Below are positions 1 to 58,993 of a stretch of 58,993 bases of DNA, in pieces; the stretch's first letter is position 1, and each line of letters opens with the position of its first letter. The stretch is taken from IMG/VR virus record IMGVR_UViG_3300017644_000001, positions 1 through 58,993 of that record. One strand, 5' to 3'. The DNA comes from a virus. Lineage: Duplodnaviria > Caudoviricetes. The position numbers and the translations under genes were made by a program. The notes under the pieces are model-generated. The model was given only the letters and a program-made list of their open reading frames with translations, ran no database searches and was not told the origin of the DNA.

Positions 1-123
1 CAACCGCTTGGCGTAAATCTCCACCACGCGCGCCAGCTTGCTGATGCCCACCACCCGGTTCGTTGGGACGTAGGCCACCCACGCCCGGCCGAGGATGGGC
101 GCCATGTGATGTTCGCAATGGCT
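1..123 (-). pseudogene. folE: Host GTP cyclohydrolase I, 3' part (interrupted by the prophage; continues beyond the left edge)
   Basis: Minus strand reads [41 protein letters not shown], the FolE signature. There is an in-frame TAG at 136-138 just upstream in phage DNA. Confidence 0.95.
114..123. repeat. att core, left junction (CGCAATGGCT; imperfect match extends to 129)
   Basis: Identical to 58904-58913. Extended match: cgcaatggctTtcCaa vs cgcaatggctCtcGaa. Confidence 0.9.
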
Positions 124-184
124 TTCCAAAGCACCCTAGCAACCATTGATTTTATTGATATTTCCGCGTCAACACGCAGGCAAA

Positions 185-203
185 GTTACGCAATTGTTAC
201 GCA
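185..203. repeat. Tandem direct repeat GTTACGCA x2, candidate integrase arm-type site
   Basis: gttacgca-att-gttacgca about 60 bp inside the left att, next to an AT-rich ATTGAT x2 stretch. The function is inferred from position. Confidence 0.4.
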
Positions 204-235
204 TGGAGTTGCCCGCCACCCGGTGCGTAGACAAC

Positions 236-312
236 AAAAAAAGCCCCCAGGACACCCGCATCGCTGCGGAGCCTGGGGGCTTTAGTTTGGGAGGAAACGC
301 CCAAGGAGGCCT
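236..312 (-). ncRNA. SuhB/MmgR (alpha-r8)-like small RNA with its own intrinsic terminator
   Basis: Minus strand reads CCUCCUUGGGCGUUUCCUCCCAAACU, then a GCCCCCAGG...CCUGGGGGC stem and U7. This matches my recollection of the family motif and layout; the 5' end is approximate. Confidence 0.7.
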
Positions 313-368
313 CCGCGGCGATGGTGATCGCCGCGAAGATCGTGCGGCCGCGACTGGCGGCCGAAACT

Positions 369-782
369 CTATGTGTCCGTCTTAGCGGCTACCGCGACCG
401 CCATCTTGTCGAGCTTGTCGTCGATCTTGGTCAGACGGTTGTCGATCCGATCCATCGCGGAATTGACGCTGTCCCGACGCGCGAACGTTTCGAGCGCCCA
501 TTGCCGTGTCGTCTGTAGCTCGGCCTGGGTCTGTTCGGCACGCTGACGCATCGCCGTGACCGTCTCGCCGAACTCGCGCCGCACGCTGTCCGCTCGATCC
601 ACCGCCGCCCGCTCGACGACGTCCAGCGCCTTAGCGACATCGGTCCTGTGGTCCGTGATTTTCTCAGTGATCCGCGCCTCCATCTCCGCAAACTTGTACG
701 TCCCGCCGATGGCGAGAAGCAGCGTTTGCAAGACGAAGCCGGCCACGCCGAGCCCGATCATGATCCAGTGATACCACTCCAT
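369..782 (-). CDS. Lysis-region membrane protein (N-terminal TM helix plus coiled coil)
   Basis: 137 aa; hydrophobic WIMIGLGVAGFVLQTLLLAIG followed by a helical region; last gene of the lysis cassette. Confidence 0.7.
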   Translation of the reverse strand: MEWYHWIMIGLGVAGFVLQTLLLAIGGTYKFAEMEARITEKITDHRTDVAKALDVVERAAVDRADSVRREFGETVTAMRQRAEQTQAELQTTRQWALETFARRDSVNSAMDRIDNRLTKIDDKLDKMAVAVAAKTDT

Positions 783-801
783 TGAGGCTGGTCTTTCCTG
801 G

Positions 802-1194
802 TCAGCGGCGAATGATACGCGCGACGTTCTCGAAGCCGCGCTTGCCGAAATAGAACATCACGACGGTGTTCGTGATGCTCGCGATCCAGCCTTTCGGTTC
901 AGGCGTCGAGCCGAGCCCCAGGCAGATGTCCCAGACCAACACCTTCAAGACGATGAAGGCGACGGCGTAGCCGATCAGTTTGTCGGGCTCGTACCACTTG
1001 CCGATTTCGGCGATGCGGATCGCCTTCTGCGCCTCGATCTCGCGTGCCTGCACGTCCAACTCGCGGCCGGCGAGATCGGCCGCGATCTTGTCGGCATCGT
1101 TGCCGGCGGCGAGCTTGGCCTTGTAGCCGTCGATGATCCCGGTGATGACGGGACCGCCGAGGAAGGATGCGAGCCAGGACAGGATGGCGGTCAT
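802..1194 (-). CDS. Putative holin (3TM-type)
   Basis: 130 aa from MTAILSWL; TM segments and the typical C-terminal VVMFYFGKRGFE; ATGA-coupled to the upstream gene. Confidence 0.7.
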   Translation of the reverse strand: MTAILSWLASFLGGPVITGIIDGYKAKLAAGNDADKIAADLAGRELDVQAREIEAQKAIRIAEIGKWYEPDKLIGYAVAFIVLKVLVWDICLGLGSTPEPKGWIASITNTVVMFYFGKRGFENVARIIRR

Positions 1195-1382
1195 GTCCGC
1201 CACCCGTGGTGTTTGGCCAGCCCGTACACTCCCTCCACCAGCGCCATGAGGACAAACCCCACGACGGCCGCGACGTCGGGATCGTTGGCGATCATGTCGG
1301 CCACGGACTGCGGCATGATTGCCCGGAGCGCCAGATACCCGGCGATGTACCGGACCAGAATGCGTGCGATCGGACCGATCAT
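1191..1382 (-). CDS. Small 2-TM holin-like protein
   Basis: 63 aa, two hydrophobic segments and a basic C-terminus; directly follows the endolysin. Confidence 0.65.
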   Translation of the reverse strand: MIGPIARILVRYIAGYLALRAIMPQSVADMIANDPDVAAVVGFVLMALVEGVYGLAKHHGWRT

Positions 1383-2149
1383 GAGCTTGCCTTTCCGAAG
1401 ATGCGCGCGAGCGCGGTGAACAACGCCGACCAGATGGACGACGCGGGGGCGGGTTGAGGTGTGGCCGGCGGCGGGACAGGCGCGGGCTTCGACGGCACGG
1501 TCGGCTCGCTCTCAGCCTTCGCGAGGATCGGCACGATGCGCGCAAGCTGCGCCTGCCGGTCCGCGAGGCCGTTCGTCCCGCCGTTCCACAGCTTGACGCA
1601 GGCGGTAAAGTCGCCTGCGTCGGCCTTTGCCGAGAGGTTCTTCCACTTCCAAAACGCCGCGCAGATAGCGGGCTGCAAGTCGGGATCGGAGGCACGCTCG
1701 GGCACGGAGAGGAGATCGACGCCGATGCGCGTGCCGACTTGCAAGTAACCGTCCCGGCCGGTGACCTGCGGGCCACCGCGGCCGATGAACTGCGAGCCGT
1801 CATTGGTGCCCGGCCGGTTGCCCATCCGGTTGCCGTAGATGTCGTCGAAGGCTTTGCGCTGCCAGCCGGGCGCGGTGCCGTACTTGCGCTGGACGTCGGC
1901 CGCCGACTTGAAACGGTTCGGCCATACCGCAGCCATGCGGGTTGCGGTGTAGTTGATGTTCTCGGTGAGGTTCTTAATCGTGAACCCCGCCGTTTCGTGG
2001 TGGACGTTCGCCAGCATGTAGGCGAGGCGCTGCCGGGTCTGGCAGACCTCGGCGAGGACGTCTTGATGCGTGACGAAAGCCGCTATGATAGCGTCCGGCG
2101 CCTTCGGAAAGACAGCGCGAAGCGTCACCGCGTTGAGGCGGACGGTCAT
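1379..2149 (-). CDS. Endolysin, glycoside hydrolase family 19
   Basis: Motifs LANVHHETAGF, LTENINY, YGNRMGN, FIGRGGPQVTGRDGY and WNGGTNGLADR; Pro-rich linker and amphipathic tail. Start chosen from AAGGA spacing. Confidence 0.9.
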   Translation of the reverse strand: MTVRLNAVTLRAVFPKAPDAIIAAFVTHQDVLAEVCQTRQRLAYMLANVHHETAGFTIKNLTENINYTATRMAAVWPNRFKSAADVQRKYGTAPGWQRKAFDDIYGNRMGNRPGTNDGSQFIGRGGPQVTGRDGYLQVGTRIGVDLLSVPERASDPDLQPAICAAFWKWKNLSAKADAGDFTACVKLWNGGTNGLADRQAQLARIVPILAKAESEPTVPSKPAPVPPPATPQPAPASSIWSALFTALARIFGKASS

Positions 2150-2183
2150 AACCATGTTCCTTGTAGGTGCGGCCCGACCGTCG

Positions 2184-2381
2184 CTACCGCGACAAGATCG
2201 CGACCATGATCGCGAGCGAGGACGCGGCAACCGCGACCATCGCCAGGATGGGAAGCCAGTCGAGACAGCGCGACGCCGCCGAAGGCTTCTCGATGTCGGG
2301 GATCGGCCGATAGACCATCGGCTGCGGCTTCAACTGCCCGACCACCGGACCAAGGTCCGGCTCCATCGGGCGGGTCTTCAT
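2184..2381 (-). CDS. Small protein with a C-terminal TM helix
   Basis: 65 aa, hydrophobic C-terminus; overlaps the stop codon of the upstream gene. Confidence 0.55.
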   Translation of the reverse strand: MKTRPMEPDLGPVVGQLKPQPMVYRPIPDIEKPSAASRCLDWLPILAMVAVAASSLAIMVAILSR

Positions 2382-2926
2382 AGCGCGGCGACGTAAGCCA
2401 CGACGCGCGAGCGCGGGTACACACCGACGCCGACGACGCGGTTATGGTTGCCTGAGATCACGATGGGGTCACCGTGGCGGGTAAACCCTTTCACAACACC
2501 GACGTGCCCGGCCTGCGGGCCGCCACGGCGCGATAAAACGACGATAGCCCCTACCCTAGGCCCAACCCTCGGCAAAGCCGCCCAGGCGCGCGCTAGATTG
2601 GGATTACGGACATGCGCCGCGGCACGCGGCGCGATCATCGCCATGAAGCGCCCGCACCACACCCGAGCCCACCCGGTCGGGTTGGTGCCGATGTAGCGCG
2701 CCGCTCGCGCGACGAGTGATCCACCGTCCAACGCAGCGCCATGCCCAACCGGGTGCCGGCGGGCCGTCTTGACCCGCTTGGCGTGCTTGACGTGAGCGCG
2801 GTGATGATGATGGGGCTTCGCGGCCGGCGCCTGAAACTCCCAAGGCCAGACGAAGCCCCGATCACGAGCCGCGGCCGGTGCGGTGAAAAGCGCAAGCGCA
2901 AGCGCCGCGCAAAGTGCTGCACGCAT
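2378..2926 (-). CDS. Secreted CHAP/NlpC-P60-like (TIGR02594-like) peptidoglycan hydrolase
   Basis: Signal peptide ending APAAA; catalytic-type motifs WCGRF, GHVGVV and ISGNH. Confidence 0.75.
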   Translation of the reverse strand: MRAALCAALALALFTAPAAARDRGFVWPWEFQAPAAKPHHHHRAHVKHAKRVKTARRHPVGHGAALDGGSLVARAARYIGTNPTGWARVWCGRFMAMIAPRAAAHVRNPNLARAWAALPRVGPRVGAIVVLSRRGGPQAGHVGVVKGFTRHGDPIVISGNHNRVVGVGVYPRSRVVAYVAAL

Positions 2927-2961
2927 AAAAGTCTCCTCGGTTTTTGTGTTGTGGCGCGCCG

Positions 2962-4059
2962 CTACTTTTGTGGCGCGAAGATATGCTCAGCGCCGAAGTC
3001 GGACGGCTCATACGACTTCGAGCCAGCGCCGGGCTTTCGTTTGTCTTTGCCCGCCTCGCCTTGCGGCAATTTCAATTCGAGCTTCGTGGTCCAGCCGGAC
3101 CGCGAGTAGTTGTGATCGACGCCCTCGATCCGATACGCGCCGTCGATGCCGGGGCGCGCGCCGACCAGAAGGAAGGTGCCGCCTGGTCGTGCGGCCGCAT
3201 TGCCGTCGATCTCGGCCGAGCCGCCGCCCTTCTCGCGCTCCGCGTCCTTCGCGCCGTTGGTCGCTGATCCCTTGCTCTCGCCTTCGTCGGCCCGCGAGTA
3301 GCGGTCGCCAAAGATGGCCTGTGCGCCCTGGTCGAGGATTTCGACCTCGGTTTCCTTCCACTTCGCGGCCTTGCGGTCATAGTAGCGAGCGCGGGACTTC
3401 TTGTGCCGCTTGCGGCCGAGCGTCGGGCTGATGTCCCAGGAGATGAGATTGTCGCCCCACGCGCCCGTCACAGTGCCCATAGCGAGGCCGGAAGCGGAGC
3501 CGCCATCCTTTACCGCCAGGATCGCCTCGGTGCCCCGGACCTTAAACACGCCGCCAAGCTCGTGCGCGACGCGCTCCCCGAAGTGCAGAAAGCTCTCGTC
3601 GTTGAGGCCCCACCACTCCCGCGTCTCGGAGGCAAACTTCGGATCGACCTTGATGCTGGTGATACCGGCGGCCTTGCCGGTTTCCTCCAACGCCTGCTTG
3701 ACCGTTTTATTGTCCATGTGCCGCTGTTGCGGCTGCTTGGCTTTGCCTTCGGTGTCCACTCCCTTGGCGCTGATCGTCAACTCACGACCACCGCCGCGCG
3801 TCCCGCGCGAGCGGACCTCGTCAACGGTGCCGACGAACACGCTGATCGCACCGAAGCCTTCCCACCCCAGAAGGATCGACATCGGCGCGCCGGTCTGCGG
3901 GAGCAGGATGTAGCCGTCGCGATCATCGACGGTGATCTCGGCGCTGTCGGAATGCGTCCCCTCCTTGTCGGAGATACGGATCGACGTCGAGAGCGGATTG
4001 AACCGGGACGAGATGTCCTGCCCAGCGACGATGATCTGGTAAAACGCTCGCTTCGCCAT
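2962..4059 (-). CDS. Baseplate hub / P2 late control D family protein
   Basis: Motifs ISDKEGTHSDSAEITVDD, NDESFLHF and YRIEGVDHNYSRSGWTT; follows the U and X genes. Confidence 0.88.
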   Translation of the reverse strand: MAKRAFYQIIVAGQDISSRFNPLSTSIRISDKEGTHSDSAEITVDDRDGYILLPQTGAPMSILLGWEGFGAISVFVGTVDEVRSRGTRGGGRELTISAKGVDTEGKAKQPQQRHMDNKTVKQALEETGKAAGITSIKVDPKFASETREWWGLNDESFLHFGERVAHELGGVFKVRGTEAILAVKDGGSASGLAMGTVTGAWGDNLISWDISPTLGRKRHKKSRARYYDRKAAKWKETEVEILDQGAQAIFGDRYSRADEGESKGSATNGAKDAEREKGGGSAEIDGNAAARPGGTFLLVGARPGIDGAYRIEGVDHNYSRSGWTTKLELKLPQGEAGKDKRKPGAGSKSYEPSDFGAEHIFAPQK

Positions 4060-4063
4060 CGGC

Positions 4064-4303
4064 TCAATCCCACAGCGACACGACGTGTTGCGTCTCGGCT
4101 ACCGGCGGCGGCTCGATGGGGATCGTCACCGCTGTGCCGACCGGCAACTCGAAGCCGCAATGTTCAAGGTGTTGGTTCACGTCGAGCGCCATCAGGCGCT
4201 CGAACAGACCGGGCATCGGTCGGCGGAACCGTTGCCAAAGGATCAGGTCAACGGACTGGCCTTCCGATTTGACCGTGACCGTCTCGTAGGTGATCGCGGC
4301 CAT
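4064..4303 (-). CDS. Tail protein X (P2 GpX-like)
   Basis: 79 aa with VDLILW, LPVGTAVTIP and terminal VSLWD. Confidence 0.85.
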   Translation of the reverse strand: MAAITYETVTVKSEGQSVDLILWQRFRRPMPGLFERLMALDVNQHLEHCGFELPVGTAVTIPIEPPPVAETQHVVSLWD

Positions 4304-4314
4304 CACCGCCTCCG

Positions 4315-4734
4315 TCAAAGCATCCCGGCGAGGATCGAGAAGATCGAGCCCGAGCCCGGTGCGTCGTCGCGCTTGAGCGACACATCGACCTCGATCACCT
4401 GACCGACGCCGTTGCGGTCCAGATAAGACGACCGCTCGCTGACCTTCTCGATGACGTACCAGCCGAGCGGTACGCCGTCGCCACGCATGAACGGCATGGG
4501 TTGGCCTGACGCTTGCTGATCGAGCAGAGCGTCGAGCGTCGATAGCCCGCCGAACTTCGACGGGAACAACTTGCATTTCAGTTCGCGGCTGTCCGGGCCG
4601 AGGCCGACGAACTCAAGCGGCGGCCGTCGTCCCATCACGGACTTCTCTGCAAACGAGGCCTCGCTGTCATGCGAGGCCTCGGTCATGTTGAACGGCCAGA
4701 CTTCCATCTGGACCGATCCGAGTTGTGCAAGCAC
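4315..4734 (-). CDS. Tail tube initiator (P2 GpU-like)
   Basis: Motifs MLAQLG, RRPPLEFVGLG and GDGVPLGWYVI; follows the tape measure gene. Confidence 0.88.
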   Translation of the reverse strand: MLAQLGSVQMEVWPFNMTEASHDSEASFAEKSVMGRRPPLEFVGLGPDSRELKCKLFPSKFGGLSTLDALLDQQASGQPMPFMRGDGVPLGWYVIEKVSERSSYLDRNGVGQVIEVDVSLKRDDAPGSGSIFSILAGML

Positions 4735-4743
4735 GGTTCAACC

Positions 4744-6912
4744 TCACGTAAAGCGCAAGCCGGTGTCCGCCTGCAAGCCGCGGACGGCCTGTTCGATCCT
4801 TCGCTCAAGATGGTCGCCGATCCGCTCGATAACCTCGCGCGGATCACTCACGCCGCTGATGCTGAACGTGTTGTTCATCGTCACCGTAACAGGCGATCCA
4901 GCGTTCGCGTGGATGCGCCCGCTCGTCGAAGGCGTGAAGATTTCGGGACGCTTCTCGCCGACGAGATAGCTGCGGCCCGCCGTCACCGGGCCGCCGCCGG
5001 CACGGCTCCCGCTGATCCGCGGTTTCCACCGCTGCCCCGGCGGTTTCGGCGCCATCGGGTCAGGGCCGGCGGTAGAGCCGCCGCCACTCCCCATGTTGCG
5101 GATCGCTTGCCCAAGGCTCACCGCGGCCTGCCACGCGCTCTTGAGCCAGCCGACGAACGTGCCAATCGCGGAGATCGCGGCGTTGATCCCCGCCGCCACC
5201 GTGCCGCCGATGGTGCGACCGAACGCGGCCCACTCCTCGTTCGACGCCTTGATCGGCCCGACCAGTCCCGAGAACCAAGTGAAGATGTTGTGCGCCATGT
5301 CGGCGATGGGCTGCAACAGACCCGGCAGCGGACCAAGGCCAGCCATGAAGCCTTCGGCGATCCCGCCGAACATCGCCTTGATGCCAGACCAGTTGTTGTA
5401 GATGGCGACGCCGGCCGCGGCGATGGCCGCGACCGCAGCCCCTACCGGCGTGATAACCGCAAGGCCGATGAACGCGGCGCGCAGCGCCGCCAGCGGGCTC
5501 AACATGGCGAGGATCGGCGCAACGGTCAGTCGAGCAAGGAAGCCGACGACAGCAAGCCCACCGCGCGCCATCATCAAGAGGCCGCTGTAAGCAAGCCCGC
5601 CAGCGAACGCCACGCCGAGCGCCGCGATACGCAGTCCGATCAAACCAGCCGTCACCGCCACAATGGACGCCGCGAGCTTCGGGTTCGCTTCGACCCAAGC
5701 CTCGATCCGCCGGACGATAGGGCCGAGCGCATCGGTGATTGCGGTCAATCCAGGGAGCAAGGCGTTGCCGAGACTGATGCGGAGGTTTTCGAGGCCAACG
5801 GTGAACCGCTTAAGCTTTTCCTCCGATGTCTCTAGACGCCGCTGGAAGTTGCGCTCGGTGTACCCCTGTGCATCAAGCGCAGCCTGCCTAATCTCCTGGT
5901 AACGCTTCATCCCCTCCCACATCGGGCGGATGAACTCCAAGACCTGCTTGTCGCCGAAGATTTGCGAGATCAGGTCGGCGTCACCTTTCGTCGCCTTTCG
6001 GAGGACGTTCAAGATATGCTCGATGGGTGACAGACCCTTCTCGCGCGCAAACTTGAGTTCCCGCGTGACGTCTATTCCGAACTTTTTGAAGTTCTTGATC
6101 GTCTCCTTGAGGGTGAGCTTCTGAAAGAAGTTCATCATATTGTTGGCGGCGGCCTCGCCGTCCTGCGCGCCGGTTCGTGCAACCTGCAACGCGGCAGCGA
6201 GGTCGGCGACCGCTGGCACGCCATGCTCGCCGAAGAACTGCGCCGTGGCCGTGATCTGCGAGAAGGACTTCGCCATGTCCTTCAACTCGAAGCCGCCTTG
6301 CTGACCGGCCATCGCCATCGCGTCGATGGCGCGCTCGACCTCGTTCGCTGGCGTCTTGAGGTTGAAGAAGATCGCGTGTGCCGACTTCGCCATTTCCTCG
6401 AAGTTGGCGCGGAACGCCGTCGTCGCCTTTCCGATGGCGGGCGCCATCGCTAGAGCGTTATCGACGTTCTCTTGATCGGTCTTGCCGCCCAGGCCCATGC
6501 CGACCAAGAAGTCGATGCCCTTGGCAACGCTGAGCGCACCCTGGTTGGTCTGGCGACCGATCTCGCGGATACGCTTACCGACCGCGGTAAGCCGCTCGCC
6601 CGACATGTCGGCTTTCTGCCCGAGGTCTTCGAGGACCGTCTCGAAGTCCATCGCCGTCTTAAACGTCGGCGACAAGGCGCGCTCAAGCGCCCACGCACCG
6701 GCTGCGGCCTCGAACATACGGCCGCGCATCGCCGCCAGCTTGGCGTTGTTTGCCTCAAGCGCAGCCCCGAGGCGCATCTGCGTCGCAGCGAAGCCCGTGG
6801 ACATGCCACGGGCTGCGGTTTGGATCGTCCGCAGCCCGGCCACGGCAACGCGCGCCGGCCCCGATACTCCGTCGATAAGACGGATCAGGAGTTGAGAAGT
6901 CAGTGTTGCCAC
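4744..6912 (-). CDS. Tail tape measure protein
   Basis: 722 aa, Ala-rich and helical; AGQQGGFELKDMA core, IYNNWSGIKAMF and C-terminal RAGGGPV..YLVGEKRPEIF. Confidence 0.92.
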   Translation of the reverse strand: MATLTSQLLIRLIDGVSGPARVAVAGLRTIQTAARGMSTGFAATQMRLGAALEANNAKLAAMRGRMFEAAAGAWALERALSPTFKTAMDFETVLEDLGQKADMSGERLTAVGKRIREIGRQTNQGALSVAKGIDFLVGMGLGGKTDQENVDNALAMAPAIGKATTAFRANFEEMAKSAHAIFFNLKTPANEVERAIDAMAMAGQQGGFELKDMAKSFSQITATAQFFGEHGVPAVADLAAALQVARTGAQDGEAAANNMMNFFQKLTLKETIKNFKKFGIDVTRELKFAREKGLSPIEHILNVLRKATKGDADLISQIFGDKQVLEFIRPMWEGMKRYQEIRQAALDAQGYTERNFQRRLETSEEKLKRFTVGLENLRISLGNALLPGLTAITDALGPIVRRIEAWVEANPKLAASIVAVTAGLIGLRIAALGVAFAGGLAYSGLLMMARGGLAVVGFLARLTVAPILAMLSPLAALRAAFIGLAVITPVGAAVAAIAAAGVAIYNNWSGIKAMFGGIAEGFMAGLGPLPGLLQPIADMAHNIFTWFSGLVGPIKASNEEWAAFGRTIGGTVAAGINAAISAIGTFVGWLKSAWQAAVSLGQAIRNMGSGGGSTAGPDPMAPKPPGQRWKPRISGSRAGGGPVTAGRSYLVGEKRPEIFTPSTSGRIHANAGSPVTVTMNNTFSISGVSDPREVIERIGDHLERRIEQAVRGLQADTGLRFT

Positions 6913-6921
6913 AGCACCACC

Positions 6922-7070
6922 TTAATGTGCGGCCTTGAAGATGCGCGCGGCCTCGTCGTGCCACGCACAAATCTCGCGCCACTCCATCTCCAAGAGCATC
7001 GGGATCGGCGTCGATAGGACGTGCGCCACGTCGGCGATCACTGACCGCCAGCCTGCCGCACCTTCGAGGG
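6922..7070 (-). CDS. GpE'-like extension of the tail assembly chaperone, reached by -1 frameshift
   Basis: After the T7 run, the -1 frame reads SLEGAAGWRSVIADVAHVLSTPIPMLLEMEWREICAWHDEAARIFKAAH*, matching the P2 E' pattern. Confidence 0.8.
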
Positions 7071-7367
7071 AAAAAAATCGTTTGCCGCCTCGGAGAGGTC
7101 GATCAAGTCCTCGGCGTCGATCTCGTCCAGCGCATCGACAGGCAGATCGTTGATGGACGCAAGCAGCGCGAGCATCAACGCCGTCTCGCCGCCGCCCTTC
7201 GCTGACACCTCCTCGATGAGGCGCATTTCCTTGCCGCGTGTCCGGCGTAGTTTCAGCGCCGAGATCGTGACGGGCTTTCCGTCCGCTGGCGTGTACGTGA
7301 TCGGAAATTTGAGAGGGAACGACTTCTCGGTGACTTGGGCTGCGCCCTGTTTCACTTCGTCGGTCAT
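7038..7367 (-). CDS. Tail assembly chaperone (GpE/gp41-like)
   Basis: 109 aa between the tube and tape measure genes, with LDEIDAEDL...DFF; AGGAG RBS. Confidence 0.85.
   Translation of the reverse strand: MTDEVKQGAAQVTEKSFPLKFPITYTPADGKPVTISALKLRRTRGKEMRLIEEVSAKGGGETALMLALLASINDLPVDALDEIDAEDLIDLSEAANDFFPSKVRQAGGQ
7071..7077 (-). promoter_or_regulatory. Programmed -1 ribosomal frameshift slippery site (T TTT TTT)
   Basis: A7 on the plus strand at the DFF codons, the conserved position for tail chaperone frameshifts. Confidence 0.8.
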
Positions 7368-7401
7368 TGGAGGCACTCCTTGCTGTTCGTTTATTGTCGT
7401 T

Positions 7402-7429
7402 CCGCCGGCCGGGCGTTACCGGCCGGCGG
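7402..7429. repeat. 11-bp inverted repeat downstream of the tail tube gene
   Basis: ccgccggccgg-gcgtta-ccggccggcgg with no U-tract; possibly a stabiliser or attenuator. Confidence 0.6.
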
Positions 7430-7440
7430 TGATGGCACGA

Positions 7441-7974
7441 TCAGATCGTGCGCGGGATGCGGAGGATCGCGTTGGTCGTGGCGTTCTCGTCGGTGCCGTT
7501 GACACGCCACGCATTGGTCCAGAAGTCCCAGAAGATTTTCTCCTGACCGTCGAAATAGACCTCGTAGTGCGTGATCTCGTTGATGGCGTAATCGGTCGCC
7601 GGCAGATCGCCGCGCTTGTATGCGTCGGCCTCGATCTTGCCGAGGCGACCTTCCATCACGGCGCGCAGTTCGGTGGATTTTCCGGTGCGGCGGTCCTTGA
7701 TCTCGCCATAGGCCGTGTAAAGGTTCTTCACCTTCGAGCCGAGGCCGAACTGGATCAGAAGCGCCGGGTCGAACCCGACCAGCTTGAACGTCGGCTCAAG
7801 CTTCTTGATGCCGACCTCGATCTCGATGCCGACGCGCGAACCGCCGGGCTGGTGATCCTGATAATCAGCCTCAAGCGTCGGCAGCTTGAGTTCCTGGATC
7901 GAAAGGTGCTTCGAGTTGGACGGGTCGTGCGAGCCGCAAAACAGGTTCGCGGCCTCAATGATAAAGAGCGACAT
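7441..7974 (-). CDS. Major tail tube protein (P2 FII-like)
   Basis: 177 aa directly after the sheath gene; ELKLPTL, HQPGG, MEGRLGKIE and THYEVYFDG. Confidence 0.9.
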   Translation of the reverse strand: MSLFIIEAANLFCGSHDPSNSKHLSIQELKLPTLEADYQDHQPGGSRVGIEIEVGIKKLEPTFKLVGFDPALLIQFGLGSKVKNLYTAYGEIKDRRTGKSTELRAVMEGRLGKIEADAYKRGDLPATDYAINEITHYEVYFDGQEKIFWDFWTNAWRVNGTDENATTNAILRIPRTI

Positions 7975-8007
7975 CGCGTCGATCTCCTATTGGATGGAAG
8001 GTGGGAA

Positions 8008-8031
8008 CGGCGCCGGCCGAAGCCGGCGCCG
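8008..8031 (-). repeat. 10-bp stem with UUCG tetraloop between sheath and tube genes
   Basis: cggcgccggc-ttcg-gccggcgccg on the minus strand. Confidence 0.6.
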
Positions 8032-8037
8032 CGTCGA

Positions 8038-9543: not shown

Positions 9544-9556
9544 TGTCTCTTGCTCC

Positions 9557-49279: not shown

Positions 49280-49508
49280 TCCCATCGCCCTCGAAGTTGG
49301 AGCCCGCGCGCTTTACGCGGCGTTCTCCCGCTACTCGCGCCGCCGGTCCGACAACTCCATCGAGACGCCCGAGGACCGCTGGAACCGCAATCAGGTCACG
49401 TCTGCGATCCAGGACGCTTTCCGAGACGAGATGCGCGCGGCGCTCGCCGCGCTCGAACAAGCAGGTTTCACCGTCCAGCAACGGGGCGCGAGCCCAAGGA
49501 GGTTTTGA
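49269..49508 (+). CDS. Hypothetical protein
   Basis: 79 aa between the exonuclease and the next gene. Confidence 0.55.
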   Translation: MAVDPIALEVGARALYAAFSRYSRRRSDNSIETPEDRWNRNQVTSAIQDAFRDEMRAALAALEQAGFTVQQRGASPRRF

Positions 49509-50707: not shown

Positions 50708-50746
50708 CAGCCGCGTCCAAGCATCAACCGTCCAAAGGAGACGAAA

Positions 50747-51655
50747 ATGAACGTTCAAGCGATACGGCCCCGCAGCCCCGTTACCGGGGCCGAACTGATC
50801 GACCGCGAGTTGATCGAGCTATTTGATCGCGCGGTCGTGACATGCCCGGTCGAGGCAATGCCGTGGCGCATCACGCCGGCACTGGCAGCGCATATCCTGA
50901 GCAGGAATTTCGGGAACCGCGAACTCCACGGCAAGAGGGCTGCGTACACCAACGACATGCGTGACGGGCGATGGTCCCTCACAGGACAGACCATCATTAT
51001 TTCGTCTGATCGCTACCTCCTGGACGGCCAAAACCGGCTCCGCGCGTGCGTTGATAGCGGGGCTGAATTTTGCAGCTACATCGTCTTCGGCATTAACGCC
51101 GACACGTTCCCAGACATTGATAGCGGAAAGACCCGCAGTGGCTCCGACGTGCTCACTATGGCAGGGGTCCCGAACGCGACCGCCGCCGCCGCTGCAACCC
51201 GATGGGTGCTGTTGCTCCAACAAGGGCGCGTGAAATCGCGGGCACCGTTCGCCCCGAAGGAAATTCGGGAAGCTATCGCACGCCTCGACCAACCACTACT
51301 GCAAGAGGGTATCCGCGCTGGCCAGCGCATTTGGAAAGTGTACGGTCAAGATCGGCACCCGATCTCAATGCTCGCCGGCCTCTACTATGTTCTCTCACAG
51401 ATCAACCGCCCGCTTGCGGTTGAGTTCTTCGGTGCAATGGAGACAGGGCGTTTCGCTGGACGTGTCGGCGCCATCGACAAGGCCCTTCGCCGCATCCGCG
51501 AGGAAAAACATAGAGCGAGTGGTCGCCTCAATGAGGTCGTCCGCCTCGCCTTCCTGATCCTCGCCTGGAACCTCGCGGCTCGCAATCGGGTCGGGACGTT
51601 GTCGGAATTTCAGTGGGACGTGTCCCAGGACTTTCCAGCCATCTTTGAGGGCTGA
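50747..51655 (+). CDS. ParB/Srx-like (DGQHR-type) domain protein
   Basis: ITP..A..L..N..NR, Y..DM..G.W, LLDGQNRL and ID.G..RS; codon usage is less GC-biased than the flanks. Confidence 0.7.
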   Translation: MNVQAIRPRSPVTGAELIDRELIELFDRAVVTCPVEAMPWRITPALAAHILSRNFGNRELHGKRAAYTNDMRDGRWSLTGQTIIISSDRYLLDGQNRLRACVDSGAEFCSYIVFGINADTFPDIDSGKTRSGSDVLTMAGVPNATAAAAATRWVLLLQQGRVKSRAPFAPKEIREAIARLDQPLLQEGIRAGQRIWKVYGQDRHPISMLAGLYYVLSQINRPLAVEFFGAMETGRFAGRVGAIDKALRRIREEKHRASGRLNEVVRLAFLILAWNLAARNRVGTLSEFQWDVSQDFPAIFEG

Positions 51656-51660
51656 GAACG

Positions 51661-52410
51661 ATGTCGAACATCATCTCCGTCCCGCCGCGATCTATCAGCA
51701 TTCCACACGAGCGACGAAACCCCGCCCCTGCTGTGGTGGAGGCCCTCAAGTCCAGTATGTCCGAGATCGGGCTCCTTAACCCGATCACGATCCAGAGCAA
51801 CCGGGCAGCGATGCGCCGCTACCTCGTCGCCGGCCGCAACCGGCTCGAAGCAGCGATACAACTGAAATGGGACACCATCGACTGCATAGAGCTTCCAGAC
51901 ATCGACGAAGTCGAGGACGCCGAGACGGTCGGTAAGCTCGCCGAGATCGCGGAGAACCTGCACCGACGCGAGATCGACGCGGTCGAGCGCGGCGAGTTGA
52001 TCGCTGCGTGGGATCGGCTGCGGTCGGATCGGCGGGAGGTTTCTGCCCAACTTGGGCAGAAACCTCAGGGGGGGCGACCGTCCGGCGGCGTCAGCAAGGC
52101 CGCCCGCGACCTCGGCATGACCCGGCAGGCCGTTGATCGCGCGCTCAAGGTCGCGGCGCTCTCGCCCGAGGCCAAGGCGAAGGCCCGCTCGGCCGGCCTC
52201 GCGAACAACCAGACGGCCTTGCTCAAGGCGGCGAAGCACAAGGAGCCCGCGGCCCAGGTCGCGGCCCTCGACCAGCACGCGGCGAAACATGAGCCGCGCC
52301 CCACCGAGAAGCCGGACCCGCTCCATCACATTAAGTCCGCGTGGCGCGTCCTCACGAAGCGCGAGCGGGACGCTTTCATCAAGTGGCTTCGTGAAGCCGG
52401 CGATCTTTAA
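51661..52410 (+). CDS. ParB N-terminal domain plus HTH protein
   Basis: IGLLNPITI, LVAGRNRLEA, EIAENLHR and SKAARDLGM. Confidence 0.85.
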   Translation: MSNIISVPPRSISIPHERRNPAPAVVEALKSSMSEIGLLNPITIQSNRAAMRRYLVAGRNRLEAAIQLKWDTIDCIELPDIDEVEDAETVGKLAEIAENLHRREIDAVERGELIAAWDRLRSDRREVSAQLGQKPQGGRPSGGVSKAARDLGMTRQAVDRALKVAALSPEAKAKARSAGLANNQTALLKAAKHKEPAAQVAALDQHAAKHEPRPTEKPDPLHHIKSAWRVLTKRERDAFIKWLREAGDL

Positions 52411-52425
52411 CGAACGGAGAACTTA

Positions 52426-52902
52426 ATGGCCGGTGATCTCAATCGCGCAACCCTGATCGGTCGCCTCGGCGCTGATCCAGAGGTTTCGCACACAAGCGGC
52501 GGCACCACCGTCGTGAAAATGCGTATCGCCACGTCGGAGACGTGGCGGGACAAGTCCAGCGGCGAGCGCAAAGAGCGCACGCAATGGCACAGCGTCGTCA
52601 TCTGGAACGAGGGCATCGGCAAGGTCGCGCAACAGTACCTTTCCAAAGGCTCGAAGGTGATGGTCGAGGGGCAGATCGAAACCCGCAAATGGCAGGACCG
52701 AGACGGCCAGGATCGCTACTCGACCGAGATCGTGCTGCGGTCCTTTGGCGCGCAACTGATCCTCCTCGGCAGCAAGGGTGACGGCAACAGCGGTGGCGGA
52801 TCGCCCGATCAACAATCCTCGTTGTCGTCAGGTTCGGCGCCCCGACGTCAGAACCGTGAGAGCTTTGACGACGAGATACCCTTCGCACCGGAGTGGCGCT
52901 GA
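52426..52902 (+). CDS. ssb: Single-stranded DNA-binding protein
   Basis: LIGRLGADPE, ATSETW, TQWHSVV, KGSKVMVEGQIETRKW and DDEIPF. Confidence 0.96.
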   Translation: MAGDLNRATLIGRLGADPEVSHTSGGTTVVKMRIATSETWRDKSSGERKERTQWHSVVIWNEGIGKVAQQYLSKGSKVMVEGQIETRKWQDRDGQDRYSTEIVLRSFGAQLILLGSKGDGNSGGGSPDQQSSLSSGSAPRRQNRESFDDEIPFAPEWR

Positions 52903-52996
52903 TGCGCGGCGAGGTCTGCAAGGCGCGCACCGGCTCGGATAGCCCGTGGGTCAAGGGCCGGCTCGCCAAGGACAAAAAAGAAACGGAGAACATTTG

Positions 52997-53728
52997 ATGC
53001 CAGACAAGATCATCATCCGCTGCATCGACTTCGAGACGACCGGCGAAAACACCGAGGAGGAGAAGCACGCGGTCTGCGAGGTCGGTTGGTGCGACGTGAC
53101 CTATCACACGCGCGAGCACATCGACGTTGGCGAGCCGATGGCTATCGTGACCAACCCGCTGCGCCCGATCCCGCCGGTTGCGCGCGCCGTCCACCACATC
53201 ACCGACGCCGAGCTTGTCGATGCACCGCCCGCGACGGCGGTATTCGTCAAGCACCTGACCGTTGGTCCGCCGAACTACTTTTGCGCTCACAACGCCGACT
53301 TTGAGCGGTCGTTCTTCGGCGGCGGCGACGTGCCGTGGGTCTGCACCTACAAGGTCGCGCTGCGGTTCTGGCCGGACGAGCAGAGCCACGGCTTGCAGGT
53401 CTTGCGCTATGCGCTCGATCTTCCCGCCGCGCCAGAGAAAGCAGGGCCGGCGCATCGCGCTGGACCTGACGCCTATCTTGGCGCGCTCCTGATGGAGCGC
53501 ATCCTACGGGAAGGCAAGGCGTCACTGGACGACATGGTGCGGTGGTCGAAGGGACCGGCGCTCCTGCCGCGCATCAAGTTCGGCAAGCACAAAGGCAAGC
53601 GATGGGAGGACGCCCCGACCGACTATCTGGAGTGGATCGTCAATAAGTCGGACCTGGATCGCGACATCAAGGCGAACGCGAAGCACCACCTCAAGAAGCG
53701 CGCCGCCGAGCATCAAGGGGCGGCCTGA
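52997..53728 (+). CDS. DEDDh 3'-5' exonuclease (ExoX-like) with a DUF3820-like tail
   Basis: IDFETTG, AHNADFE, HRAGPDA and FGKHKG..P.DYL.W. Confidence 0.9.
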   Translation: MPDKIIIRCIDFETTGENTEEEKHAVCEVGWCDVTYHTREHIDVGEPMAIVTNPLRPIPPVARAVHHITDAELVDAPPATAVFVKHLTVGPPNYFCAHNADFERSFFGGGDVPWVCTYKVALRFWPDEQSHGLQVLRYALDLPAAPEKAGPAHRAGPDAYLGALLMERILREGKASLDDMVRWSKGPALLPRIKFGKHKGKRWEDAPTDYLEWIVNKSDLDRDIKANAKHHLKKRAAEHQGAA

Positions 53729-54864
53729 TGCAGTGGTCACCGCAACAGGACGACGCGCTTCGGCGCGTCGCGGCCTGGATCAATGATCGCAGCGCGCCGC
53801 AGGTCTTTCGTCTGTTCGGCTTCGCCGGCACCGGCAAGACGACGCTGGCGAAGCACATCGCGGCCGGCGTCAAAGGGCCGGTTGTGTTCGGGGCATTTAC
53901 CGGGAAGGCCGCGCTCGTCTTGCGCGGCAAGGGCTGCGCCGACGCCAAGACGATCCACTCGCTGATCTATCGGCTCGACGAGGAGAACTACGGCGACCCG
54001 ACGTTCATCCTCAATCGCGATAGCGAGGTGGCGGGCGCCGATCTGGTCATCATCGACGAGTGTTCGATGGTCGGTGAGGAGCTTGGGCGCGACCTGCTGT
54101 CGTTCGGGACAAAGGTGCTTGTCCTTGGCGACCCGGCGCAGCTTCCGCCGGTCAACGGCGAGGGCTTCTTCACGAACCAGCGCCCCGACTTCATGCTGAC
54201 CGAAATTCATCGGCAAGCCCGCGACAACCCGATCATCGCCATGTCGCAGGTCGTTCGCGAAGGCGGACGTCTGGACGTCGGTGACTACGGGAGCAGTCGC
54301 GTCATCCGGCGAAGCGATGTCCAGACCGACGAGGTCTTGGCCGCCGATACGATCCTGGTCGGCAAGAACGCCACACGACGCGCCTATAACCGGCGGGTCC
54401 GCAAGCTGCTCGGCCGCGAGTTCGCTCTTGTCCCCGAGCCGGGCGACAAGCTGGTCTGTCTCAAGAACAAGCGGACCAAGGGTCTGCTCAACGGCGGCAT
54501 CTGGGCGGCCCGAGACGTCAAGACGTCAAGCGGCGGCAAGCGCAACCTGCGCGACGCGCTCGTGTTCCGCATGGAGATCGTACCTCAAGACCCAGGCGAG
54601 GATCAGCGTGTCGTGAAGGCGCTCGTCGCCCGCGCCTTCTTTGAAGGCGCCGAGCGCGACATGCCCTGGAAGGAGCGGAAGCGATACGACGAGTTCGACT
54701 TTGGCTACGCGCTAACGGTTCACAAGGCCCAGGGCTCGCAATGGCCGAACGTGACCGTGTTCGACGAGAGCGCGATCTTCCAGGAGGATCGAGCGCGGCA
54801 CCTCTACACCGCGATCACTCGCGCCAGCGAGCGCGTGACCGTCGTTGATCTTGGCGGTGCGTGA
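53728..54864 (+). CDS. SF1B RecD/Dda-like helicase
   Basis: GFAGTGKT, IIDECSM, GDPAQLPPV, EIHRQ, YALTVHKAQGS and YTAITRA. Confidence 0.92.
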   Translation: MQWSPQQDDALRRVAAWINDRSAPQVFRLFGFAGTGKTTLAKHIAAGVKGPVVFGAFTGKAALVLRGKGCADAKTIHSLIYRLDEENYGDPTFILNRDSEVAGADLVIIDECSMVGEELGRDLLSFGTKVLVLGDPAQLPPVNGEGFFTNQRPDFMLTEIHRQARDNPIIAMSQVVREGGRLDVGDYGSSRVIRRSDVQTDEVLAADTILVGKNATRRAYNRRVRKLLGREFALVPEPGDKLVCLKNKRTKGLLNGGIWAARDVKTSSGGKRNLRDALVFRMEIVPQDPGEDQRVVKALVARAFFEGAERDMPWKERKRYDEFDFGYALTVHKAQGSQWPNVTVFDESAIFQEDRARHLYTAITRASERVTVVDLGGA

Positions 54865-55289
54865 TGGGGCTGATGTTCCCCAAGCGCCGCACCAAGGCGC
54901 CGGCCGCGGATCGCGGCAAGGACGTCGGGCACCTGCGCTTGATCCGCGCGTGCCCTTGCCTTGCCTGCCTCGCCGAGCCAGCCGAGGCAGCGCACGTCCG
55001 TTACTCCGACGCGGCGCGCGGCAAGGTCAATCCGGGGATCGGCCGAAAGCCAGAGGACCGCTGGACCGTTCCGCTTTGCCCGCGCTGCCACCGGACCGGG
55101 ACCGCCGCGCAGCACAGCACCAACGAGCGGGCGTGGTGGGAAGCGCACCGGATCGACCCGCTCGCAGCGGCCATCGCGCTGCATCGCATCTCAACGACGT
55201 GCCGCAGCCGCAAGTTGGCCGAGCACATGACCATCGAACTGATGCGCGCCGAGGTCCGGCGGCGCCATAGGAGGATTACGAACCAATGA
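54864..55289 (+). CDS. DUF968 / HNHc-like nuclease
   Basis: HL..IR..PCLAC..AAHVR..KPED..TVPLC..CH..QH. Confidence 0.8.
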   Translation: MGLMFPKRRTKAPAADRGKDVGHLRLIRACPCLACLAEPAEAAHVRYSDAARGKVNPGIGRKPEDRWTVPLCPRCHRTGTAAQHSTNERAWWEAHRIDPLAAAIALHRISTTCRSRKLAEHMTIELMRAEVRRRHRRITNQ

Positions 55290-55522
55290 GACTGTGGATC
55301 GTCTCTTACCGCTACATCGACCAAGCCGGCGAGCGGCACGACAACGTCGGGCTCTGGCCGCTGCATCCCGCATCCGTGATGCTGGCGTCGTTCCGTAATG
55401 AGTGCGTTCGGATCGACCGCATCTACTCGGTGACGGAAGTCCCCGACGAACACATCGACCCGGACGCCATCATCGACGGCCTCGTCGCGCCCTCCCCTGC
55501 CCCAGGAGTTGCTCACCGATGA
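55286..55522 (+). CDS. Hypothetical protein
   Basis: 78 aa, AGGAGG RBS, ATGA-coupled. Confidence 0.65.
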   Translation: MRLWIVSYRYIDQAGERHDNVGLWPLHPASVMLASFRNECVRIDRIYSVTEVPDEHIDPDAIIDGLVAPSPAPGVAHR

Positions 55523-56106
55523 ACGAAGCGATCAAAGCATACCCGTTGACGTGGCCTGACGGCTTCCCGCGCTCGCCACGCCGCAACACCAGCCAGTTCA
55601 AGACCACCTTGGCCGGCGCGCTGCGGAATGTGCAGGACAGCCTTCGGCGCTTCGCCACCGACAGCGGACGCAAGCTCGACGGCGTCACGATCTCGTCGAA
55701 CGTCACGCTCGGCTCGGAGCGGCCGGACGATCCTGCGGTCGCGGTCTGGTTTACCTGGGACGGCTTGCAAGTCTGCATCGCCGTTGATCGGTATCAGGCC
55801 GTGCAAGACAACCTCCAAGCGATCCACCACATCCTCGAAGCGCGTCGGACGGAACTTCGGCACGGAACTCTCGCGCTGGTCCGCGCCACGTTCCGCGGGT
55901 TCCAGGCGTTGCCGCCACCGCCGGGCAAAAAGTCGTGGCGGCAGGTTCTCGGCTTCGCCGCCGACAGCGCGCCGGGGAAAGACCAAATCGCGAGCGCATA
56001 TCGCAGCCTCGCCTCGCGGTTGCACCCAGACGCCAGCGGCGGCTCCCACGAAGCGATGTCGGAATTAAACGCCGCGCGCGACGCGGCGTTGAAAGAGGTT
56101 GGCTGA
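55519..56106 (+). CDS. J-domain (DnaJ-like) phage protein
   Basis: YPLTWP, ISSN, DPAVAVWF and a C-terminal J-domain AYR..LHPD..MSELN.AR. Confidence 0.9.
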   Translation: MNEAIKAYPLTWPDGFPRSPRRNTSQFKTTLAGALRNVQDSLRRFATDSGRKLDGVTISSNVTLGSERPDDPAVAVWFTWDGLQVCIAVDRYQAVQDNLQAIHHILEARRTELRHGTLALVRATFRGFQALPPPPGKKSWRQVLGFAADSAPGKDQIASAYRSLASRLHPDASGGSHEAMSELNAARDAALKEVG

Positions 56107-56696: not shown

Positions 56697-56737
56697 CGCC
56701 ACGCAACTCGCCGGCATCGTTAGCTTTGGAGCATTCT

Positions 56738-57094
56738 ATGACTACCCGCGTTCCGTGTTGCGTTCCCGGTTGCGGCCGAACCTTCTCGGCTGACGTTGCC
56801 GGCGATTGCGACGAGTTGATGTGTCGCCGCCACTGGCGGATGGCCGACACCCTTCTCCGGGATCGGCACAAGAGGATTAGAAAACGTATCCGCAAGCTGA
56901 TCCGGCTTGCCAGCCACAAGGCGATCCGCGCCAAAGGAGACGACAGGATCGACCGAGTGTGGCAACGCCTGCGGCGCGCCGAACAAGCCGCGTGGCAATC
57001 CATCAAAGAGGACGTGACGATCAAGGCCGCGCTCGACGCCGAGGCGGCGCCAAAGCGCCGCCCGCGGCATGACATGGAGCCGAGCCTTGGCTGA
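56738..57094 (+). CDS. Cys-rich basic hypothetical protein
   Basis: CCVPGC..MCRRHW; GGAG RBS. Confidence 0.7.
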   Translation: MTTRVPCCVPGCGRTFSADVAGDCDELMCRRHWRMADTLLRDRHKRIRKRIRKLIRLASHKAIRAKGDDRIDRVWQRLRRAEQAAWQSIKEDVTIKAALDAEAAPKRRPRHDMEPSLG

Positions 57095-57305
57095 CGATTT
57101 CGATAGTTCGCGGGAAGCGATGCGGCGTGCCCAGGCACGCATGACCACGCTCGGCCAGAAGATTTGCGACGAGTGGATGGAGCGGCTCGAACGCCGCGCC
57201 GCTGTTGCGTTGAAGTTCTATAGAGCCGACGAGTTGTCGTGGGCTTATCACCCAGGCGAGCCAGAACCGCGGCTTGTCGTTACGCCGAGGCCGCGCCGTG
57301 ACTGA
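57069..57305 (+). CDS. Hypothetical protein (start uncertain)
   Basis: ~78 aa bridging the two flanking ORFs. Confidence 0.5.
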   Translation: MTWSRALADDFDSSREAMRRAQARMTTLGQKICDEWMERLERRAAVALKFYRADELSWAYHPGEPEPRLVVTPRPRRD

Positions 57306-57525
57306 TAGGACCGCGGACGTGAAGGAGATCGAGCGCGCCGTCGTGCTGATGGCTTACGTCGTCGTGACGCACGGCCCGGCATATAGCCCGGTCCTCGAAT
57401 ATCTTGAGCAGGAGTTGGCCGCGGCTCGGGATCGCAACCCTGTGGCGCGCGCACAACGGCTTCTCGAAAACTACACCTTGGACGGCGGCCGAAACGCGAT
57501 GCGCTTGAGCCACCGCACCTTCTGA
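57298..57525 (+). CDS. Small protein converging on the integrase; candidate recombination directionality factor
   Basis: 75 aa from GTG with GAGG RBS; last early gene; overlaps the int 3' end by 55 nt. Function inferred from position. Confidence 0.5.
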   Translation: MTDRTADVKEIERAVVLMAYVVVTHGPAYSPVLEYLEQELAAARDRNPVARAQRLLENYTLDGGRNAMRLSHRTF

Positions 57526-58784
57526 TCCAGCGTCGGGCCGGCACCGTATTTCGGCCGCTGGAACTTGTGCCCCATCAGCGCCGCGATCAGCTTGTCCGGA
57601 GCCTCTACCGCGGACAAGCGATCCTCGAACGTATGGCGCAGCGAGTACATCGAGTGCTGCGGCGTCGGTAAGAGCTTCCTCGTTTCGAGAACCTTGTTCA
57701 CCAGATTGGACAAGGATGTGGACTTGTCCCGGTATCGCGGGAAGCCATCCGGTTGCATCTGCATCGCGTCGAGCGCCACCCCGACGAGCGGGATGTCGCG
57801 CTGCGACTGTAGCGTCTTCATGCGCCGGCCGTCTGGTCGGACCTGCACATGCGGAATGTCGCCATCGAGGATAATCGTCTCGGCCGTCAGGTTGACCGCC
57901 TCGGACGGCCGCATCCCAGTTTCGACCATCAGGAAGATCACGCGGCGCGCTTCCGGGTTAAGCGTGTCGAGTGCGCCGGGCGCCAGGAGACTACGCTGCA
58001 CAAAGTCCGGAGGGAACGGCGGGCGCGAGTGATCTACCTTCCCCGCGATCCGCAGCCGCGAAAATACCGGCTCAAGGTTGAGCCGGCGCGCCTCGTTTAC
58101 GACGCGCCACATCGAACTCATCACGGCAATCTTCTTGTTCGCTGACGAGATCGCAATACCTTCCTTGGTGACACGGTTCTGCCAGAACTCGCGAAGATCG
58201 AGCGCGTTGTCGCGGGTGATCTGGTCAAGGTTCTTGTCGCCCATAGCCTTGATCGCGCACTGGACCGCGGAGGTGATGAAGTTGTGGCGCTGACGTTTTT
58301 GGTCTGGCGACATATCGGACATTGCCGCCCGCATCTGCGTCTCATACTCGGCAACCAGATCAGATAGCCGCAGTCGCGGCCGCTCGACGCCGCCGAGCAG
58401 CGCCTCGACGGTCTGGCGATCTTCCAGCGCCCCCTTTTCCTCTAGCGCCCGGAGCCGAGCCAGCACCTCGGCGAGCCCTCGGCTCGGGAGATCTTGCGCC
58501 AGGACATAGTCGAACCCGAGCGAGCGCGCCCTAGCGCGCGCCGCGTCGTAGCGGCTCCGCGCCTCGGCGCTGCCGCCATTGGACAGGCCGTTCCAATAGG
58601 CTTCGAGGTTGCGGTTAAGCTCGTCCACGACGAGTATGGCGCGGGCGCTGCGCGGATCGTCGGCGACCCGGATATTGGTGCTGATACGGACCAGCTTGCG
58701 TCGGTCGAGGTGTTCAAATCGCTTCGGGACGCGCCGGATCAAATACCAGACGCCGTCCCGCTTTATCGGGCGGACAGGCTTCAT
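57471..58784 (-). CDS. Tyrosine recombinase/integrase with a DUF6538-like N-terminus
   Basis: WYLIRRVP, TGMRPSE (R), MKT (K), YSLRHTF, LMGH and KYG (Y); adjacent to att. Confidence 0.95.
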   Translation of the reverse strand: MKPVRPIKRDGVWYLIRRVPKRFEHLDRRKLVRISTNIRVADDPRSARAILVVDELNRNLEAYWNGLSNGGSAEARSRYDAARARARSLGFDYVLAQDLPSRGLAEVLARLRALEEKGALEDRQTVEALLGGVERPRLRLSDLVAEYETQMRAAMSDMSPDQKRQRHNFITSAVQCAIKAMGDKNLDQITRDNALDLREFWQNRVTKEGIAISSANKKIAVMSSMWRVVNEARRLNLEPVFSRLRIAGKVDHSRPPFPPDFVQRSLLAPGALDTLNPEARRVIFLMVETGMRPSEAVNLTAETIILDGDIPHVQVRPDGRRMKTLQSQRDIPLVGVALDAMQMQPDGFPRYRDKSTSLSNLVNKVLETRKLLPTPQHSMYSLRHTFEDRLSAVEAPDKLIAALMGHKFQRPKYGAGPTLDQKVRWLKRIAFRPPSKV

Positions 58785-58839
58785 GAATTGAGTGATCGTT
58801 ATCCAGTTGTATCGCGGAAGCGATACTAGCCTACCGCTC

Positions 58840-58853
58840 GTGTGAAAATACAA
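58840..58853. promoter_or_regulatory. Operator-like site GTGTG-AAAA-TACAA upstream of the integrase
   Basis: 8/10 match to TTGTA-N4-TACAA; hairpin GTATCGC-GGAA-GCGATAC nearby at 58809-58826. Confidence 0.5.
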
Positions 58854-58880
58854 CGGTTTTTTTGTCGCTAGTTCAAAAGC

Positions 58881-58993
58881 TTAACCGATAAGATTGCGAA
58901 GGCCGCAATGGCTCTCGAACCGGACCCCGCGCAGCACGACCATTTCGTCGTAACCCTCGATCTCGTCGAAGGATTTCTGCAATACCTGCTCGG
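58881..58993 (-). pseudogene. folE: Host GTP cyclohydrolase I, 5' part, truncated by the prophage
   Basis: [29 protein letters not shown] followed by phage-derived GLRNLIG* (TAA at 58881-58883). Confidence 0.95.
58904..58913. repeat. att core, right junction (CGCAATGGCT)
   Basis: Direct repeat of 114-123. Confidence 0.9.

Follow-up and report, generated by a model that had tools for sequence, protein, structure and literature searches.

When a prophage interrupts a metabolic gene at the codons of its catalytic motif and carries no substitute for the displaced half, is the function lost to the host, placed under the control of prophage excision, or covered by other genes? The question is raised by the IMG/VR virus record IMGVR_UViG_3300017644_000001, a tailed-phage sequence that was analyzed as a whole (58,993 bp; "the window") and that brings no host genome along; the two ends of the window carry the two parts of a split folE gene. 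The original prediction had offered two readings of this locus, a redundant host enzyme or a reversible excision switch on folate and queuosine synthesis. We consider it probable that the phage in the window integrated in the ordinary, site-specific way into an accessory folE paralog that the cell can do without, with a probable polar effect on a downstream partner gene. A complete, contractile-tailed temperate phage of approximately 58.8 kb has integrated by means of its tyrosine integrase into an accessory folE of a soil Pseudorhodoplanes, with the crossover at a 10-bp core that covers codons for Ser-His-Cys; the insertion truncates the enzyme after its first zinc-ligand cysteine and cuts off the 3' half, probably together with a co-transcribed downstream gene, from the promoter. 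The cell would tolerate this since neither its housekeeping folE nor a third FolE-like gene is affected.

Insertion geometry and the fate of the folE halves

The features at the two ends of the window are as follows (minus, minus strand).

1-123, minus: 3' fragment of folE (accessory copy), ending ...AKRL, cut by the window edge, 42 residues visible
114-123: core repeat at attR, gene-strand letters AGCCATTGCG, corresponding to the Ser-His-Cys codons and base 1 of the following codon
124-239, minus: attR phage arm, with an in-frame TAG (136-138) and a TTG (127-129) one codon ahead of ESHC
185-192 and 196-203: pair of GTTACGCA copies in the attR phage arm, 11 nt apart
240-283, minus: strong hairpin with seven consecutive U after it, 12-nt arms 100% complementary, -36.1 kcal/mol, z -4.9
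57471-58784, minus: tyrosine integrase of 437 aa (PF00589, 1.5e-8, above cut-off; homologs named integrases in their source records)
58785-58903, minus: attL phage arm, giving the truncated FolE N-terminal fragment a 7-residue tail, GLRNLIG, and a TAA stop (58881-58883)
58904-58913: core repeat at attL, the second exact copy of the 10-mer
58904-58993, minus: in-window part of the folE 5' fragment; a host contig (L002) carries what remains of the reading frame, plus 3.2 kb of flanking host DNA

The tailed prophage of 58.8 kb spans positions 124-58903 between 10-bp direct repeats; the 10-mer CGCAATGGCT has exactly two copies in the window (114-123 and 58904-58913), a two-match outcome that was obtained in none of 100 shuffles. 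The gene lies on the minus strand, and the core is placed on the zinc-motif codons for Ser-His-Cys, precisely where the gene is split, so that the proposed disruption of folE at its active site is confirmed. The right end of the window translates as ...RGVRFESHC, followed by the phage-encoded GLRNLIG and a stop codon, and the left end reads, on the gene strand, an in-frame TAG, the residues GAL and then the folE 3' half to the window edge; both ends thus read as they had been described. The zinc-binding and catalytic residues of FolE are Cys-Glu-His-His and a later His-x-Cys, and both motifs are invariant in an alignment of four FolE proteins. On excision the CEHH motif would be re-formed across the junction; the window itself stops short of the Cys in the later His-x-Cys motif.

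On the intact ortholog in L129, a locus of another genome of the family, the two flanks align at 8770-9084 (5') and 9075-9197 (3'), and the halves also abut with a 10-bp overlap on a second intact ortholog, L130. Since the overlap consists of the 10-bp core alone, the insertion is clean, without loss or gain of sequence. The expectation that excision at the repeat regenerates the gene holds in silico, and precise excision at the core would restore the folE reading frame. The attL junction is reproduced without any difference by the 5791-bp host contig L002 and by a bridging contig (record 14) from a second sample; the attR junction is seen in the window only. The paired GTTACGCA copies in the attR arm may be arm-type integrase sites. 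A separate observation concerns a 28-nt stretch of this phage arm (201-228), which is identical at 22 of 28 positions to the host folE 3' half at 36-63, in direct orientation and 165 nt away. The match outscored 200 of 200 mononucleotide shuffles; the repeat is nevertheless regarded as unproven, as local alignment of the phage arm to orthologous folE stayed within shuffle noise and tblastn gave an E value of 7.4 there.

The phage does not compensate for the interruption. PF01227 matches the window at 1-129 only, and tblastn with three FolE paralogs recovers the two end fragments alone, all other matches having E values of 0.9 or higher; because both searches match nothing except the end fragments, the phage interior contains neither a folE copy nor a substitute half, as had been claimed. 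The fragments score far below intact genes, with 66.4 bits for the 3' fragment and 65.1 bits for the 5' fragment (in the host genome) against 234-237 bits for intact orthologs, at a cut-off of 27.

The hairpin at 240-283, whose folding energy was equaled by no shuffle out of 200, is likely to terminate transcription of the phage late operon and lies some 115 nt ahead of attR, and no promoter-like sites were found when they were sought in window positions 1-900; with a terminator hairpin and no promoter-like site, the folE 3' half is left without an evident source of transcription. The effect of the insertion would probably be polar. The TTG one codon before ESHC has a weak AGGG upstream.

FolE paralogs of the host and the accessory folE module

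The host side of the junction was recovered in a metagenome-assembled genome (MAG) of a soil Pseudorhodoplanes. Its 5791-bp contig L002 matches window positions 56780-58993 at 100% identity and adds 3577 bp of host sequence beyond them. On this contig the folE 5' half is present in full as an open frame, and ahead of it lies a gene encoding an RND efflux pump of 1041 aa. Orthologs of the pump (six loci of the genus) are 81-87% identical across the genus, which fits the assignment of the host to Pseudorhodoplanes. In none of the four loci examined does a folE follow the pump ortholog, and the split gene therefore occupies a variable spot.

A search of the MAG for other folE and folE2 genes, as the original prediction had proposed, yielded three PF01227 matches: a full-length canonical FolE, a full-length divergent FolE of 253 aa, and the split 5' half; FolE2 (PF02649) was not found in the MAG. 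The canonical folE occurs in 30/30 genomes of the genus, with hisI adjoining it in 29 of the 30 loci and the thirtieth locus lying at a contig end; second or third PF01227 matches occur in 8/30 genomes. The 5' half of the split gene is 85.6% identical to the accessory ortholog in another genome of the family and 46.5% identical to the host canonical FolE, and for the 3' half, of which 42 residues are visible, the same comparison gives 92.9% versus 68.3%. By this measure, the split gene is an accessory paralog, distinct from the housekeeping copy. The two genes nearest to it, 86% and 81% identical, are intact and belong to genomes from other genera of the family; in a family sample of 301 genomes, 299 match the 5' half, and approximately 97 (counted by hand) have two or more matches. 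The divergent third FolE-family gene (L083:1486-2247, minus strand, 253 aa), present in 7/30 genus genomes, has CSHH in place of CEHH.

Of the two readings that had been offered, redundancy is thereby upheld, by the canonical and the divergent FolE in the MAG and by the canonical gene throughout the genus, and the switch is weakened. With the canonical FolE in place, loss of the accessory copy is not expected to control the supply of folate or queuosine; nor would the insertion be expected to starve deazaguanine-dependent phages or dpd systems, a consequence that had also been suggested. General family scans of the approximately 60 phage open reading frames (ORFs) turned up no deazaguanine-pathway genes.

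A candidate for the gene that would suffer from a polar effect can be proposed by analogy. Among Xanthobacteraceae loci (L129, L130, L118-L128), an accessory folE is followed by a Rieske/FAD oxidoreductase gene in 10/12 cases; in L129 (8733-10967) and L130 (4427-6625), folE is succeeded within about 20 bp by a gene of 507-512 aa with a Rieske [2Fe-2S] domain, an FAD/NAD pyridine-nucleotide-disulfide oxidoreductase domain and a reductase C-terminal domain. An ortholog of the Rieske/FAD gene was not found in the host MAG, and window positions 1-20000 are likewise absent from the MAG save for the paralog match. We know of no described function for the pairing of accessory FolE with a Rieske/FAD protein, speaking from general knowledge and not from a literature search for the pairing; as a by-product, the analysis flags this pairing as conserved and uncharacterized in the Xanthobacteraceae.

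The accessory gene may be expendable elsewhere in the family. In genome G357 (L161, contig G357:C11, at about 281534-281821) the accessory ortholog is frameshifted at approximately residues 93-106, close to the zinc motif, and the downstream Rieske/FAD gene is intact (81% identity); the frameshift could reflect a pseudogene or a sequencing error, and its position near the zinc motif fits a dispensable gene. We infer that the interrupted copy is dispensable in the present host.

Other interrupted copies were sought with little yield. A FolE scan of viral contigs for a second split folE found the motif spanned in 13/13 loci, with scan patterns that favor intact genes. Seventy-seven truncated FolE proteins were inspected among the 120 matches listed, and most of them end at contig ends or with frameshift-like tails. 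P0199 was rejected as a second insertion, its gene being frameshifted instead, and folE matches at contig ends in G314 and G045 are uninformative on splitting. On a 686-bp metagenome contig, P0153, a shortened FolE-like ORF follows the FolE sequence as far as ...FESHCE, after which come six residues without resemblance to FolE; a further junction at this folE site could explain it.

Integrase relatives, excision and comparable prophages

The integrase gene lies on the folE strand, with its start 120 nt downstream of the attL core. Besides the window's own entry (P0003, 100%), its closest homologs form a 72% identical cluster on short metagenome contigs, and all others are at most 57% identical. 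An integrase alignment scan of species-representative genomes produced 80 loci, one of which is L002, i.e., this prophage; among these relatives, the Hyphomicrobiales tyrosine integrases that target tRNA genes (L003-L081, 42-57% identical) belong to the same family and share the layout of the window, in which the integrase gene has the orientation of the target and follows it, here at a distance of 115-290 nt. The insertion sites of integrase homologs, whose mapping had been suggested, are mostly tRNA genes: a tRNA gene stands directly upstream of the integrase on the same strand in 30/41 relative loci scanned (24 of these 30 are tRNA-Ser), and a folE fragment beside the integrase was found in 0/79 other loci. 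In the 11 relative loci without a tRNA gene, the upstream gene is not clearly truncated in any. The relatives thus mostly sit beside an apparently whole tRNA gene, whereas here a coding gene is left broken; as far as these mapped loci go, folE is an unusual target within an integrase family that mostly uses tRNA genes.

This pattern is the main argument for the strongest alternative, secondary-site integration, in which a tRNA-targeting phage landed once in a look-alike site inside folE. The predominance of tRNA genes, tRNA-Ser above all, next to related integrases and the lack of any folE beside them speak for it, as do the short core of 10 bp and the heptamer GGTTCGA, the T-loop heptamer of tRNA-Ser genes (loci L003-L062), which lies directly 5' of the core in folE (58914-58921, gene strand). 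Against it, identity between the integrase and those relatives does not exceed 57%, the 72% cluster aside, which gives room for a specificity of its own; ARAGORN found no tRNA gene in the window, and when the attL arm was aligned with eight tRNA-Ser loci, the phage side lacked a tRNA 3' end. The core is also kept at 10/10 positions in two other accessory folE genes and at 9/10 in a third (8/10 in the host canonical folE), and the identical attL junction occurs in a second sample. On balance, a single landing at a secondary site is unlikely, and we regard folE as presumably the regular site of this integrase and not a one-off.

The GGTTCGA heptamer beside the core may also be a relic of a change of target, a lead at most. 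In the tRNA-Ser relatives, a second nearby copy of the stretch from T-loop to CCA was found in none of five genomes. Integrase relatives were not found in viral contigs, in a search that may omit the record's own entries; an integrase search of metagenome contigs gave a lone 32-residue match that was judged spurious.

A different alternative would restore the switch of the original prediction on a smaller scale: in active lysogeny, reversible, lysis-free excision would toggle the accessory folE and its downstream partner, and the host folE promoter would read into int, coupling target regulation to recombination. The mid-gene split without replacement and the restored frame on precise excision in silico are compatible with this, as is the integrase on the same strand 120 nt past the core, with no hairpin and T-run seen by eye in the space between (no terminator scan was run there). 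Some support comes from public runs, in which the junction region is present in two soil samples as assembled contigs. In run X1, the probable source run of the window, the contig that carries the host flank (depth 10.6) continues for 20 letters beyond the core and then breaks off; these letters do not agree with the prophage side, whose contig has a depth of 7.3. An attB-specific path would have this length at k=31, a word size that fits the 30-letter overlaps between adjacent contigs. This ending, judged from its length and its mismatch, hints weakly at empty sites alongside the lysogen. Contig depth, however, does not translate into a proportion of cells; empty sites would arise equally from ordinary induction, curing or non-lysogen strains. 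Moreover, the target function is not absent in the lysogen, given the two other full-length FolE-family genes in the MAG and the canonical gene in 30/30 genus genomes, so that other FolE genes back up the function and the switch would have no evident folate or queuosine consequence. As a weak negative, no excisionase (or repressor) was recognized among ten small ORFs, mostly near the integrase. Active lysogeny therefore appears quite improbable. We give similarly little credence to its elaborated form, a reversible switch on the two-gene module of accessory FolE and Rieske/FAD protein, with attB on the zinc-motif codons and the folE promoter directed into int; and it is just as doubtful that, within such a module, inducing conditions also prime excision and that the integrase lineage moved from tRNA-Ser to folE while keeping the T-loop heptamer. 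An assembly artefact or chimera, with phage and folE fragments misjoined, could appeal to the attR junction being seen in the window only, and is made highly improbable by an independent MAG contig that repeats the attL junction with 100% identity, by the bridging contig of another sample, and by two halves that align to a single orthologous gene and join there at the shared 10 bp.

Ordinary integration into an accessory folE thus remains the interpretation that we prefer; several points weigh against it. The host MAG contains two versions of the RND pump gene (G001:C49 and G001:C360, at 100% and 83% identity), which suggests two related strains binned together; in a mixed MAG the paralogs might belong to the other cell, and redundancy would then rest on the 30/30 pattern of the genus. 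Redundancy also presupposes that the canonical folE is expressed, and the folE 3' half is visible in the window for 42 residues only. Finally, a single integrase lineage and a single lysogen are found at the folE site, and loss of the accessory folE may carry a cost.

Prophages in coding genes provide the closest comparisons. The Listeria prophage phi10403S in comK and the Staphylococcus aureus prophage phiSa3 in hlb are described as cases of active lysogeny, in which the phages act as regulatory switches (PMC7397523, PMC6597384). As presented there, the comK and hlb prophages resemble the present one in that they lie inside a coding gene, inactivate it, bring no replacement and restore it by precise excision; they differ in that regulated, virion-free excision has been shown experimentally and the function is lost in the lysogen, whereas here the case is made from sequence and intact paralogs are present. 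Phage 21 and the element e14, which integrate in icd, carry in attP a substitute 3' end that restores the target gene. Their integration is likewise site-specific and inside a metabolic gene; here, the phage contributes no more than seven codons and a stop. A target with paralogs is not without parallel, as Mycobacterium smegmatis has other groEL copies. Mycobacteriophage Bxb1 integrates in groEL1, and Bxb1 lysogens are reported to be biofilm-defective (PMC1470463). Bxb1 is similarly integrated within a host coding gene; it uses a serine integrase at the 3' end of the gene, and the present phage a tyrosine integrase in mid-gene at the catalytic motif.

In a full-text literature search, with supplementary files outside its reach, no description of folE as a prophage attB was found; several apparent matches were the surname Foley, and two further ones name folE in other connections. 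On the evidence of the window, folE joins the protein-coding genes used as prophage attachment sites, and an integrase of a mostly tRNA-targeting family is found in a coding gene. For genome scans, the lesson is that a metabolic gene split by a prophage is no evidence of a switch until the paralogs of the host have been counted.

Gene content of the phage

Pfam and PHROGs assignments define a late module on the minus strand, replication genes, and an early or accessory block on the plus strand (plus, plus strand).

369-26355, minus: late module (Pfam and PHROGs)
1379-2230, minus: endolysin
2962-4734, minus: tail proteins
4744-6912, minus: tape measure
7441-7974, minus: head closure
8038-9558, minus: tail sheath
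10954-12279, minus: tail fiber-like
14803-16928, minus: baseplate
19172-20212, minus: capsid E
21022-22332, minus: S49 protease
22597-24240, minus: lambda-type portal
24244-26355, minus: large terminase gpA
28061-30446, minus: adjoining DNA methyltransferase-like and ParB-like nuclease genes
37633-40214, minus: primase and helicase replication genes
44336-56106, plus: early/accessory block, including a DUF932 protein
46048-47514, plus: SMC/AAA ATPase
52946-53728, plus: RNase T-like exonuclease
53728-54864, plus: SF1 helicase
54861-55289, plus: HNH-like

With virion, lysis and replication genes and a tyrosine integrase, the prophage is genuine and looks complete, judging from its predicted genes, and CheckV assigns a completeness of 99. 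A megablast search with 10 kb of the late region against a phage collection gave no match. The guanine plus cytosine fraction is even along the window, at about 0.61-0.67, and one phage gene matches a PHROG labeled threonine dehydratase.

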